From the IMG/VR virus record IMGVR_UViG_3300032093_000049, positions 36,017 to 100,016 of that record: 64,000 nt of DNA; one strand, 5' to 3'. The notes under the pieces were generated by a model that worked only from the letters and a program-made list of their open reading frames with translations, was not told the origin of the DNA and searched no databases. Shown one piece after another: positions 34,814 through 38,070 of the stretch. How positions within the stretch are numbered: the first letter of the stretch is position 1; every line of letters begins with the position of its first letter. The stretch is from a virus. Both the position numbers and the translations under genes were made by a program.

Positions 34814-34937
34814 AAACTGATACAGGATATGCAGATATATGTACATTGAATACTGTTAATTGTATATTCTCCCTGGTCACTGAAACTGTATCAGCGTATG
34901 CACATGTGTATTAAGTATTAACTATTCACAATATACT

Positions 34938-35025
34938 ATTCTTGGATTCCTAAAGGTAAACAAGTCTTGGAAATTACGGGGTGAGTATCCAGTAAACACT
35001 GGAAAACATTCTTGGATTCCTAAAG
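34938..35025. repeat. Perfect 18-bp direct repeat pair, 70-bp period
   Basis: attcttggattcctaaag at 34938-34955 and 35008-35025. Confidence 0.85.
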
Positions 35026-35194
35026 TTGAGTATAAATAATACATAATTACTTTAAGTAAGAGGGGCTAAGTAGTTGAGAATCAATCATACCTTATACTCA
35101 TACTACTTAACCAAAGCTCAAAATACACACATAAGTAGCCACTCTTCACTGAGTATATGGCTATAAAACACTGCAATCAATTAAAACTATACAT

Positions 35195-35621: not shown

Positions 35622-35750
35622 ATGGAGGATAACAAAGTAATACTCTTTGAGTATACAAGAAATGGTGTTACTTATTACACCCCAAATGAAATCATTGCCA
35701 GCATGCGCAGTGAAGACGGTAAGTACTATAGCATAGAGTACACACTGTAA
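35622..35750 (+). CDS. 42-aa protein (not in ORF track)
   Basis: MEDNKVILFEYTRNGVTYYTPNEIIASMRSEDGKYYSIEYTL. Confidence 0.6.
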   Translation: MEDNKVILFEYTRNGVTYYTPNEIIASMRSEDGKYYSIEYTL

Positions 35751-35766
35751 ATTAATTACCAATATT

Positions 35767-35861
35767 ACTCTCATCCAATTGCAGGATAACATACTACCAA
35801 TTGGCTTATGATGCCTCGGTGTTGGATGTATGTCAAGGGTTGCAACCTTGTGAGAGTACCA
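35767..35861 (+). ncRNA. tRNA-shaped RNA with encoded ACCA end and non-canonical loops (95 nt)
   Basis: actctca/tgagagt 7-bp stem plus ACCA; caagg-gttgcaa-ccttg 5-bp/7-nt arm; tcc-aattgca-gga arm; acatac/gtatgt long arm. Confidence 0.5.
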
Positions 35862-35864
35862 TAT

Positions 35865-35943
35865 AACAAAGAGAACAACTCGTACCATGGGGTTGCCTGT
35901 TAGATCAACAATGGTTAGGTCGTGGGCTTTAGTTCTCTTTGTT
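35865..35943 (+). ncRNA. Long stem-loop element
   Basis: aacaaagagaac/gttctctttgtt 12-bp closing stem. Confidence 0.4.
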
Positions 35944-35950
35944 TTATTAA

Positions 35951-36105
35951 TGCACCATTCCTGATTCCCAAGGTCAGGCAGTTGTAAGTATCATCTTAAG
36001 TTCCAAGAGAGTACTTGTGCATCACGAGTGGAATGTAGACTGTGAAACCGTAACGGGTGGAGTTTATGTACTTGCACAGTGATCTTACAACTGAGTGCAG
36101 AGGGG
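35951..36105 (+). ncRNA. Structured RNA, scaffold family copy A
   Basis: tgcac...cctga/tcagg hairpin, cagttgtaag/cttacaactg stem, gtgca-gagggg. Confidence 0.6.
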
Positions 36106-36144
36106 TATAAACAATAGATTAATAAAACTTAAAACTCAACTCAA

Positions 36145-36339
36145 ATGAACTATCTTATCAAAACCCAATCAGGTAACATGTACTCTTACTATACTACTAA
36201 AGACCTATCTAAATATATAGGGAGTAGTACACATATCTCCATTGGAGATGAATCATTCACGATACTACAAGTGTTAGAAGAGTATACTCCCTCAAAACGA
36301 TATATAGGTAATGAACCTTATGTTGTAACAGAACCTTAA
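36145..36339 (+). CDS. Hypothetical protein (64 aa)
   Basis: AACTCAAATG leader. Confidence 0.6.
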   Translation: MNYLIKTQSGNMYSYYTTKDLSKYIGSSTHISIGDESFTILQVLEEYTPSKRYIGNEPYVVTEP

Positions 36340-36352
36340 TTTAAAACTTAAA

Positions 36353-36574
36353 ATGAAAACAATTAAATCAATAACTGAAGAAAACTTTTTAGAGTATGTT
36401 ATACTTACAAGAAAGTTGAGAAAACATATAATGGTGATGGAATCATTGATGATTTTTAATAAAAGAAAGGGTAACAAAACAGGTTATTTCAAGAATCAAA
36501 TTGAGATAGCAGAAAAAAACTTCTTGAAATACAATAGACAGGTGCAAAGCCTGTATCCTAATGCACTAATCTGA
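36353..36574 (+). CDS. Hypothetical protein (73 aa)
   Basis: aaaacttaaaatg leader; 3' end overlaps RNA copy B. Confidence 0.55.
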   Translation: MKTIKSITEENFLEYVILTRKLRKHIMVMESLMIFNKRKGNKTGYFKNQIEIAEKNFLKYNRQVQSLYPNALI

Positions 36575-36666
36575 CCTTGGTCAGGCAGTTGTGATACTAA
36601 CATGTAGTTAGCCTGTGAGTATACGGGATGCTGGAATACCAGTTATCACAACTAAGTGCAGAGGGG
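36562..36666 (+). ncRNA. Structured RNA, scaffold family copy B
   Basis: tgcac...ctgac/gtcag hairpin, agttgtgata/tatcacaact stem enclosing three hairpins, gtgca-gagggg. Confidence 0.6.
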
Positions 36667-36763
36667 TCAAATAATAGGTTAGTAAAAATAGTTTAGAGCG
36701 GAACGGTTCCACTAACCTATGCTACATTGGTGGATAACCTCTGTAGCACTAATCTATCTTTGA

Positions 36764-36848
36764 TGCACTGACACAACTAATGAACAGAGGCCGTCATCAC
36801 AGGATTTATTCTGTCTATCTGCCTAGTAGTTAGTTGTGTCTCAGTGCA
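36764..36848 (+). ncRNA. Structured RNA related to copies A/B (element C)
   Basis: tgcactga/tcagtgca and cacaactaa/ttagttgtg stems. Confidence 0.45.
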
Positions 36849-36885
36849 AAAAAGTATTAATCAGTAACCAATTAAACACACATAT

Positions 36886-37047
36886 ATGATTTCAAATTTG
36901 ATTTTGGAAATTGCTGTATTAGTAACAGCAGTAAATGGTTCTTGTCCTAAAGAGTACAAAGAATCATTAAGTAAATTACAGAAGAGTGATTTGCTTATGC
37001 TCAAAGAATCTTATGAGCAAGAACTCTCTATTGTTACAAAAAATTGA
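36886..37047 (+). CDS. 53-aa protein (not in ORF track)
   Basis: MISNLILEIAVLVTAVNGSCPKEYKESLSKLQKSDLLMLKESYEQELSIVTKN. Confidence 0.5.
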   Translation: MISNLILEIAVLVTAVNGSCPKEYKESLSKLQKSDLLMLKESYEQELSIVTKN

Positions 37048-37212
37048 TGCATCTTTAGGATGCAGGTGGTTGGGAAGCATACCTTATGAACTTTCAAAAG
37101 TGCAGCCGTGCTGTTACACATTTATGTGGCTATACAGATAACGCGGTCAGTAGAAGCACCAGAAGAGCTAATAACTTTAGGCTCTTATTTATCAACTCAA
37201 AAATCAACTCAA

Positions 37213-38070
37213 ATGAAAATTCACTTAAAATCTAGACAAGGATTATTTACTGTAGTTACCTATGGTAGAAACTCAATAACACTGTGCACTAAGCATGAAA
37301 CATTTAGTGTACCATCTGAAGACTTCAAATGTTTTGCAGGTGGTGGATGGGCAGAGTCTACAGCTGAAGAACAAAGACTGTTTATGTCAGTAGTAGCTCC
37401 TCTTGCTCTTCAAAAAACAATGGAGATAGAAGCAAAGATAACTGCAATGGCAAGTTTAATTGATATCAGAGACAAAGCAAAGAATCTTGCTTCTGAGTAT
37501 ATATCTGCTATTGCTGCACAAGAAGGAGAAGACTATGAAAATACAGTTCTCAATACTGATGATCTTGAAGATTCTTATGAAGCTGAAATGAGAAGACAAG
37601 ATCTTGCAAGAACTCCTGAACAATGGTATGCTAAAATTCAAGAGAAGCAAGATGAAACTGAGAGATTAAGAAAGAAACTTGTAAATATTGCTTCTAAAGT
37701 CTATAAGTCACCAGTTGATTTATCAGACTTTCAGAATAGCAATGGTATCAAGTTTATTATACAAGTTGCCCATGATGATGAAACAGATTGCAGAATGTGT
37801 TTTGATCCATATCAATTTGTAGAGAACTTTCATAGCTCTATCAGTGAAGTATACCGTAACAGCAAATATTTTACTGCTAATGGTGGATGGTTGAAAGTAA
37901 TAGGTAATGATGTTATCCTTTACTATAAATCAGGAGACTATGGTGTGTATAATGATACTGTTGCTATAGAGTGTGCAAAGAGACTGTTCCCAAATAAAGA
38001 AATTCATTCTTATGCGGGAAGACAATGGGATTCAGAATTAGATAATCTATTTACAGAATTACCATTTTAA
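37213..38070 (+). CDS. Hypothetical protein ending ELPF (likely start MKIHLK, 285 aa)
   Basis: AACTCAAATG leader; H...GGW...SGDYG C-terminal domain. Confidence 0.7.
   Translation: MKIHLKSRQGLFTVVTYGRNSITLCTKHETFSVPSEDFKCFAGGGWAESTAEEQRLFMSVVAPLALQKTMEIEAKITAMASLIDIRDKAKNLASEYISAIAAQEGEDYENTVLNTDDLEDSYEAEMRRQDLARTPEQWYAKIQEKQDETERLRKKLVNIASKVYKSPVDLSDFQNSNGIKFIIQVAHDDETDCRMCFDPYQFVENFHSSISEVYRNSKYFTANGGWLKVIGNDVILYYKSGDYGVYNDTVAIECAKRLFPNKEIHSYAGRQWDSELDNLFTELPF

Follow-up and report, generated by a model that had tools for sequence, protein, structure and literature searches.

Organization of the early region

The window analyzed in this work is the right 64 kb of a 100-kb phage record from IMG/VR. 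Structural genes are located leftward up to ~33 kb, and rightward from there the genome contains small early genes and a replication module; the latter was all that Pfam recognized among 20 neighboring proteins. The portal protein is 22–33% identical to the portals of crAss-like phages (Bacteroides, Flavobacterium, Cellulophaga), and therefore a Bacteroidota host is probable. We take the phage to be an environmental (lake) crAss-like phage.

Two related elements, A and B, are located in a gene-poor, hairpin-rich part of the rightward early region. The initial annotation described them, together with a third element (C), as a repeated family of structured RNAs in which a new type of conserved scaffold holds variable multi-hairpin cargo. 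The presence of such a family on the + strand of the early region was borne out by our analysis; the scaffold, however, does not appear to be new, as it maps onto the twister ribozyme. The features revealed in this part of the window are as follows:

35865..35943, + strand: 12-bp hairpin AACAAAGAGAAC/GUUCUCUUUGUU (predicted fold), which abuts and partly overlaps P1 of A and has the position of a twister P0
35940..36112, + strand: element A, a putative complete twister-type ribozyme (type P1 with P5); covariance model R1, 91.6 bits, E 5.5e-23
36106..36147, + strand: leader between A and the next gene (ATG 36145), with the recurrent start context AACTYAAAA..AACTCAAATG (direct-repeat family D1)
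36353..36574, + strand: 73-aa ORF from the ORF list, whose last 8 codons and stop overlap B
36551..36673, + strand: element B, a putative degenerate twister-derived copy; covariance model, 59.8 bits
36674..36747, + strand: two stable hairpins after B, 36674–36720 (10-bp stem) and 36721–36747
36764..36848, + strand: element C, an independent long hairpin (z -5.5) followed by no U-run on either strand

A conserved module at 35766–35862 precedes the 12-bp hairpin and A. Element A lies 39 nt before the ATG at 36145, which opens a 64-aa gene, and upstream of the recurrent start context. The blocks said to be shared by A (35951–36105) and B (36562–36666) are indeed shared: GGTCAGGCAGTTGT has exactly two occurrences, and the 19-mer ACAACTRAGTGCAGAGGGG was found two times versus 0.00 expected by chance (shuffles give none). 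The extent of the elements had to be revised, since the real unit adds UAA and a short P1 on both sides (35940–36112 and 36551–36673). This true outer stem and two pseudoknots were missing from the earlier description of A and B.

Distribution of the family

Among the matches listed, the 19-mer was present in >116 IMG/VR viral contigs, and a pattern for the 5' part matched 36 contigs. In the copies extracted the frame hardly varies, and the interior enclosed by it ranges from 17 to ~230 nt. A covariance model (R1) was built from 56 copies; in the 100-kb genome, A (91.6 bits) and B (59.8 bits) were its only matches apart from a doubtful one of 15 bits at 34921–35047. A search of phage metagenome contigs with such a model had been proposed earlier as a check; it gave ~170 matches distributed over 141 loci, and single contigs contained as many as four copies (four in locus L091, three in L039). 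In total, the family comprises ~150 distinct copies from >130 contigs.

Neither the island nor the 47-nt 5' scaffold had a DNA match in GenBank phages (50,697 records). In prokaryote genomes the strict pattern gave no matches, and the 19-mer was revealed in five short MAG contigs of mixed taxonomy, which point to no firm host.

The other check proposed, a comparison with Rfam, revealed no known family in the region, either at the gathering score or at E<=10. Nothing relevant was found at the gathering threshold in the whole window, and no twister match (RF03160, RF02684, RF03154) was found at E<=10 either in the region 35700–37300 or in six loci with short-P5 copies. Model RF03160 (gathering score 67.2 bits) had no match in the whole genome.

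Predicted structure of element A

Every part of a twister was found in A, which was scored by the covariance model R1 of the family. Element A folds into P1, P2, P4 and P5, both twister pseudoknots are possible, and the catalytic A and G are kept. The order is P1, UAA, UGCA, CC + AUU, CCUGA, UUCCCAAGG, UCAGG, P5 + AG, UGCA, GAGGG, P1, and the parts are located as follows:

35944..35947, + strand: 5' strand of P1, pairing with 36105–36108 (U.G, A-U, U-A and a U-U mismatch)
35948..35950, + strand: 5' strand of L1, UAA, with the predicted scissile bond U35948^A35949
35951..35954, + strand: 5' strand of P2, UGCA, pairing with 36096–36099
35955..35956, + strand: 5' strand of pseudoknot 1, CC, pairing with G35973 and G35972 at the end of L4
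35960..35978, + strand: P4 hairpin CCUGA/UCAGG with loop L4, UUCCCAAGG, at 35965–35973
35979..36093, + strand: P5, with a 10-bp base CAGUUGUAAG/CUUACAACUG around a 95-nt variable insert (predicted fold; the base covaries distally)
36094..36104, + strand: 3' core, composed of J5/2 AG, the 3' strand of P2 (UGCA), G36100, A36101 and the GGG of pseudoknot 2

Additional P1 pairs can be formed by 35941–35943 with 36109–36112, and in pseudoknot 2 C35967–C35969 pair with G36104–G36102. A35949 is the predicted general acid of A and G36100 its predicted general base. C35955 has an alternative partner, G36095, with which it would form a fifth P2 pair. The TGCAC/GTGCA stem that was originally taken for the outer one corresponds to P2; its fifth pair may be real, since it covaries (C-G/U-A), but the stem is not the outermost because P1 lies outside it.

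Conservation and covariation

The pairings of A are conserved and covary in ~150 relatives. Covariation was scored on the alignment made by the model, to which both pseudoknots were added by hand. The fraction of paired cells was 93.8% versus 85.0% after shuffling, and the covariation score was 0.239, a value reached by 0/500 shuffles, versus 0.106 after shuffling; controls with slid partners scored at most 0.048.

Covariation is strong in P1 and P4 and sparser in P2 and P5. P4 is 92.6% paired, and all five of its pairs are changed on both sides; the same holds for three of the four P1 pairs, with the alternations AU/GC/UA and UA/AU/GC/CG. In-register pairing of P1 (0.84/0.76/0.76 versus 0.83/0.52/0.45 with permuted partners) suggests that this stem directly adjoins the predicted cut site, in register. 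As noted in the initial annotation, A and B show covariation in the stem immediately within the conserved block, and this covariation extends across the family.

The 5' strand of L1 is well kept (U in 94/102, A in 93/102 and A in 92/102 members). The general-base G and the next A, both within GAGGGG, are kept in 100/102 members each; it should be mentioned that most relatives were fetched by the fixed 19-mer containing half of P5, P2' and GAGGGG, and therefore the invariance of the P5 base, P2' and GAGGGG is inflated. In P2, 98% of cells are paired and a compensatory variant UGCG/CGCA exists, but P2, pseudoknot 1 and the P5 base offer little covariation because of their near-invariance, which partly results from fetching with the 19-mer. 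Copies found only by the model carry other P5 bases (CAAGAUU, CAAUUAU, CUAUAAG).

Pseudoknot 1 is always possible and shows almost no variation: CC/GG is present in 89 of the 94 parsed members, UC/GG in four and CU/GG in one. Comparison of position 35955 with 36095 revealed C-G in 90 cases, U-A in three and U.G in one; hence the nucleotide that follows P2 covaries with the one preceding P2', and competition between pseudoknot 1 and a fifth P2 pair is possible. Pseudoknot 2 was absent from the model used for the alignment and is nevertheless 98% paired. Its variant CAC/GUG was found in three elements from three contigs (L039:617, L087:6322 and L058:5124), and CCA/UGG in one element (L039:2532).

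In 60 distinct rows P1 starts with a U.G pair, which would read C.A in the opposite strand; therefore the RNA strand is the + strand. These data bear on a function at the DNA level, namely a recombination site, a single-strand hairpin promoter or origin, or a miniature mobile element ended by the conserved blocks. We consider it very improbable: pseudoknot covariation would be meaningless for duplex DNA, and it is only on the + strand that G.U pairs are common (60 rows with U.G at P1, several such pairs in P4). Moreover, 11 of the 12 model matches on the opposite strand are partial matches to the near-palindromic P5 stem, antisense inside forward-strand copies, and in ~40% of distinct copies an ORF (>=40 aa) starts on the same strand 29–62 nt after GAGGG. 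What a DNA element would account for is the location of copies at differing intergenic positions (directly before the MKIH gene in L070 and L078, 1.1 kb earlier in the window) and the similarity of A and B for ~25 nt beyond GAGGGG, which suggests duplication.

Comparison with twister ribozymes

The twister consensus used here is that of PMC6154101, PMC8501958 and PMC11662667; the published parse is P1, UAA, P2, NC, .., P4, (G)UCCCAAGC, P4, .., P2, GAGGG, P1. The family resembles twister (PMC6154101; RF03160, RF02684, RF03154) in the order and identity of the core parts, the shared order being P1, U^AA, 4-bp P2, 2-nt 'NC', P4, L4 CCC-AA-G(N), P2', G-A-GGG, P1'. It further shares with twister the location of P5 between P4 and P2', the catalytic A and G, and the possibility of both pseudoknots. 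Loop L4 of A, UUCCCAAGG, matches the twister L4 of S. mansoni, GUCCCAAGC, and of rice, TCCCAAGC; the P4/L4 of the rice twister is CCGGTCCCAAGCCCGG, and the S. mansoni twisters have an optional P3 between GC and P4. McKinley et al. (PMC11662667) use as criteria an NA cut site, A as the general acid, G as the general base, 'NC' for pseudoknot 1 and a strand complementary to L4 for pseudoknot 2, and all of these hold for the sequence of A and its family; for pseudoknot 1, pairing is possible in all parsed members, with hardly any variation.

On the basis of sequence, we consider it likely that A is a twister-class self-cleaving ribozyme, of type P1 with the optional P5, in the + strand early operon. 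The family would then belong to a known class of ribozymes, of which it forms a divergent and uncatalogued branch, and would not be a new kind of scaffold. Among the functions suggested originally, a processing signal or ribozyme is consistent with the twister parse, and the other options (scaffold, decoy) are disfavored.

Several features distinguish the family from known twisters. Pseudoknot 1 is CC/GG, whereas the usual twister pair is GC/GC. P5, with 17 to ~230 nt, is present in every model-found copy, in contrast to 1% of annotated twisters, and the 3' strand of L2 is P5 + AG where published examples have AUAAA/GUAAA. P1 has only 3–4 bp and starts with U.G; twister P1 is reported to be dispensable. 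The possible fifth P2 pair competing with pseudoknot 1 and the short-loop, probably not pseudoknot-forming B-type are likewise peculiar to the family, which occurs in early operons of uncultured crAss-like phages and is missed by the Rfam twister models.

Other identities were considered and rejected. The junction nucleotides do not fit a hammerhead, HDV-like or pistol ribozyme, an integron attC site, a Y RNA, a riboswitch or an N4-type hairpin promoter, and Rfam was silent on them. Genes for RtcB and Ro60/TROVE, looked for because 2',3'-cyclic phosphate ends were expected, are absent from the 100-kb record; a Y RNA/YrlA acting with Ro60 was discarded, as there is no Rfam match in the window and no TROVE in the record.

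The variable interior and the upstream hairpin

P5 is a known optional stem of twisters, found in 1% of those annotated. Its influence on cleavage is small, and L2 accommodates insertions (PMC11662667). The 'variable cargo' described earlier can therefore be identified with P5. The interiors of A and B differ in length and lack detectable similarity, as had been stated, and neither P5 insert resembles those of other loci. When the inserts of 88 copies were compared with dinucleotide shuffles, the mean z in the family was -0.88, with 17% of copies below -2. The claim that both interiors fold is weak: B is modestly more stable than shuffles (z -2.2), and A is not more stable (z -0.44). Since the inserts are unrelated and barely more stable than shuffles, P5 looks like a drifting peripheral arm rather than selected cargo; its interior appears to be free to drift in length and sequence.

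The ends of P5 were also the basis for the proposal of a CRISPR-repeat mimic (RNA anti-CRISPR) or another decoy directed against Bacteroidota Cas9/Cas13b. CRISPR repeats of type II-C/VI-B are 36–47 nt long. The P5 arms are 60–230 nt apart with unrelated interiors, a spacing unfit for such a repeat, and the P5 base differs in the relatives found by the model. What is conserved lies outside P5 and corresponds to twister. Mimicry is favored only by the GTTGT...ACAAC termini of P5 and by the probable Bacteroidota host, and we assign it an almost negligible probability.

A twister with regulated (aptazyme-like) cleavage is conceivable, in which P5, the upstream hairpin or the fifth P2 pair would gate the reaction and time processing during infection. 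P0 sits immediately upstream of twisters and lowered cleavage in those tested (PMC11662667), and the P0-like hairpin 35865–35943 overlaps P1 of A; the alternative pair C35955-G36095 covaries and competes with pseudoknot 1. However, nothing that might act as a sensor is conserved in the sequence or structure of P5, and relatives do not keep the upstream hairpin: the ribozyme of L047 and L070 directly follows the conserved module. Such regulation seems to us quite unlikely, and we favor a twister with P5 as a peripheral arm.

Element B and B-type copies

Element B keeps the blocks UAA, P2, P4, the P5 base and GAGGGG. Its parts are U36559-A36560-A36561 with the predicted cut U36559^A36560, P2 (36562–65/36657–60), P4 (36570–74/36581–85) with the loop CCUUGG (36575–80), P5 (36586–36654) and G36661. 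In the alignment to the model, B has v marks in P1 and gaps in L4; P1 is reduced to 1–2 pairs. In the minimum-energy fold P4 is extended to a 6-bp stem with a CUUG tetraloop. The loop leaves at most two pairs for each pseudoknot (for pseudoknot 2, at most 2/3) and departs from the L4 consensus. The L4 adenines, a sensitive position in tested twisters (PMC11662667), are replaced. The similarity of A and B extends ~25 nt past GAGGGG, which suggests duplication. Probably, B arose by duplication, had its pseudoknot-forming P4 loop exchanged for a short one, and is weak or inactive.

The cloverleaf-like appearance attributed to B does not make it tRNA-like. ARAGORN and Rfam revealed no tRNA within the 64-kb window, and the three inner hairpins of B have loops of 4–5 nt; a tRNA or tRNA-like identity was rejected.

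The predicted cut site of B is located 13 nt before the stop codon of the 73-aa ORF. Efficient cleavage of B would therefore convert the message of this ORF into a non-stop one. A homologue of residues 14–59 of the ORF product was revealed by tblastn in L017, where it precedes the twister.

A similar short-loop form, with an AUAA loop, was found in L037, L075 and L129 (in L037 a tRNA-Leu is located 8 nt upstream), and B-type copies are thus kept in at least two phage lineages. Copies that retain UAA and GAGGGG with a loop barely capable of the pseudoknots hint that there may also be selection for something beyond catalysis. They also fit the view that the whole family is a non-catalytic structured scaffold whose junction is a binding site for a phage or host protein or presents the interior as cargo (sRNA, decoy), its likeness to twister being convergent or vestigial: B and the copies in L037/L075/L129 keep UAA, P2, the P5 base and GAGGGG despite differing P4 loops of 4–6 nt. 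In the P5 base CAGUUGU/ACAACUG, both the pairing and the sequence itself are conserved, and the Rfam twister models do not score the family. We regard this as unlikely, since conservation of all catalytic and tertiary features of twister, with a covarying pseudoknot 2, is hard to explain without the twister fold. The P5 inserts, unrelated and barely structured (mean z -0.88; A -0.44), are unlike selected cargo, and conservation of the P5 base is inflated by fetching with the 19-mer; model-only copies differ in it.

If A is a twister, the always-present P5 and the B-type copies could still indicate that its scaffold has an additional, non-catalytic function. This might be a protein-recognized handle that marks or stabilizes the 5' ends of early RNA, or the twister and a small gene might form shuffling cassettes, in which dead copies would spare the overlapping ORF (and, if active, would un-stop it). 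We put forward this idea as a speculation with little chance of being correct.

Element C and neighboring hairpins

According to the initial annotation, C reuses the outer stem of A and B. The family covariance model gave no match to C even at E<=10, no homologue was present in 140 related loci, and the likeness of C to A and B is restricted to short words (ATGCACT, CACAACTAA); membership of C in the family was therefore ruled out. An intrinsic terminator was likewise ruled out, as C has no U-run and is absent from the terminator-like list. C is an unrelated stable hairpin within the same RNA-rich island. The two hairpins between B and C also lack homologues in related loci. The fold of 36667–36885 has an energy of -65.9 kcal/mol (z -6.4).

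Possible role of the ribozyme

During transcription, the RNA of A would cut itself between U35948 and A35949. The upstream RNA, containing the conserved module and the hairpin, would be left with a 2',3'-cyclic phosphate, and the downstream mRNA (the 64-aa gene at 36145 onward) would begin with a 5'-OH and the compactly folded ribozyme. As cleavage by a twister takes place at the 5' edge of the ribozyme itself, the folded RNA would remain attached to the downstream product as a leader with a 5'-OH. The downstream cistron would be uncoupled from the upstream RNA, with separate stability and translation, like a natural 'insulator'. In L063 and L088 tRNAs are located 4–5 nt downstream of the copies, and in such sister phages the ribozyme might trim transcripts adjoining tRNAs.

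Thus, the likely role of the predicted ribozyme is co-transcriptional separation of cistrons and non-coding RNAs in an early polycistronic RNA, just upstream of genes or tRNAs; a benefit for insulation and stability is what we infer from this arrangement. Processing of polycistronic mRNA has been suggested, though not proven, for bacterial twisters and hammerheads (PMC6765202, PMC10085705).

The natural role of twisters has been open since their discovery, and reviews give only an unexplained association with phage genes. The family described here provides a defined setting in which the processing/insulation hypothesis is directly testable, and its natural variants offer ready compensatory pseudoknot mutants together with a probable dead copy for comparison. 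If our assignment is correct, the curated Rfam models miss a large phage branch of the twister class, and part of an otherwise mysterious 'non-coding island' is explained.

The family resembles the clusters of bacterial twisters and hammerheads (PMC6765202, PMC10085705) in its association with phage genes, its clustering with structured RNAs or ribozymes and the presence of tandem copies. Those ribozymes are found mainly in bacterial genomes or prophages and are most strongly associated with genes of Mu-like phages (PMC6765202, PMC10085705), whereas our family occurs in lytic-type crAss-like contigs from environmental metagenomes. The nearest phage precedent is the theta ribozymes, minimal HDV-like ribozymes of gut phages (PMC10879173). 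They are also small, encoded by tailed phages, located between genes or beside tRNAs, and proposed to process transcripts, but as HDV-like double pseudoknots they belong to a different class. Theta ribozymes stand directly downstream of tRNAs and trim 3' trailers, whereas most copies of our family stand upstream of protein genes and few beside tRNAs.

Predicted ribozyme copies and their relatives

The similarity between the two putative twister-type ribozyme copies of the window, A (35940–36112, + strand) and B (36551–36673, + strand), extends about 25 nt beyond the GAGGGG motif (AAYAATAGRTTARTAAAA; 36105–36135 versus 36666–36695), and the related viral locus L106 shares this leader. This likeness at the sequence level suggests that B is the product of a duplicated ribozyme-plus-leader unit. 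Because a 73-aa ORF (36353–36574) extends into B, the predicted cut of B (36559/36560) falls inside this ORF, 13 nt upstream of its stop. In the related locus L017 the homologue of the ORF stops 53 nt upstream of the twister.

The region 34921–35047, which weakly matches the twister covariance model (15.2 bits, E 0.087), may be a decayed twister copy. It carries UAUA/UAUA at P2, lacks GAGGG and falls within a 280-nt stretch without genes, in which ATTCTTGGATTCCTAAAG occurs as a direct repeat (34938 and 35008).

Some relatives contain tandem twister arrays, with four copies in L091 (7083–8632) and three in L039 (419–2606). Among the relatives there is also a second form, whose 5' half is UUAAUCA..CUCCCAAGG and whose usual position is devoid of the UGCA-CC block. 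Tandem arrays and the second form are assigned to loci L091, L039, L008, L010, L012, L043, L053 and L088. In L008, UGCA followed by a hairpin is located further upstream than usual, an arrangement resembling a twister that carries the optional P3.

Twister-type elements end 4–5 nt upstream of tRNA-Gln or tRNA-Trp in the sister phages L063 (~1925) and L088 (~2345), while in L037 (13074–13081) a B-type element, with a short P4 loop, begins 8 nt downstream of tRNA-Leu. This spacing suggests that the elements are linked to tRNA precursor processing.

Across the family, covariation is seen between position 35955, which follows the 5' strand of P2, and position 36095, which precedes the 3' strand of P2: C-G 90, U-A 3, U.G 1. 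The two positions would form a fifth P2 pair competing with pseudoknot 1, so that a conformational switch is possible.

Neighboring RNA-like elements and leaders

Two further stretches were revealed near the putative ribozymes:
35766–35862, second conserved RNA-like module, located upstream of the twister at a distance of about 100 nt
37048–37212, gene-free stretch upstream of a conserved 285-aa gene

The upstream module is present in at least nine phage contigs (the window, L038, L069, L117, L049, L131, L068, L047 and L040). Its 8-bp closing stem (UACUCUCA/UGAGAGUA) is invariant, as is the hairpin CAAGG-GUUGCAA-CCUUG, while the centre is variable; it had no Rfam match. Since ribozymes tend to cluster, this module may also be an RNA that acts in processing or regulation.

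The true start of the 285-aa gene is the ATG at 37213. In the gene-free stretch, the hairpins GCAUC/GAUGC and AAGAGC/GCUCUU precede a U-rich run. The place of this stretch is taken by a twister in L070, L078, L085 and L040. A start context that recurs at 36126, 37194, 38108 and 38287, AACTYAAAA(N)YYAACTCAAATGA, lies upstream of four early genes; this conserved leader has no Shine-Dalgarno sequence, which is what one would expect with a Bacteroidota host.
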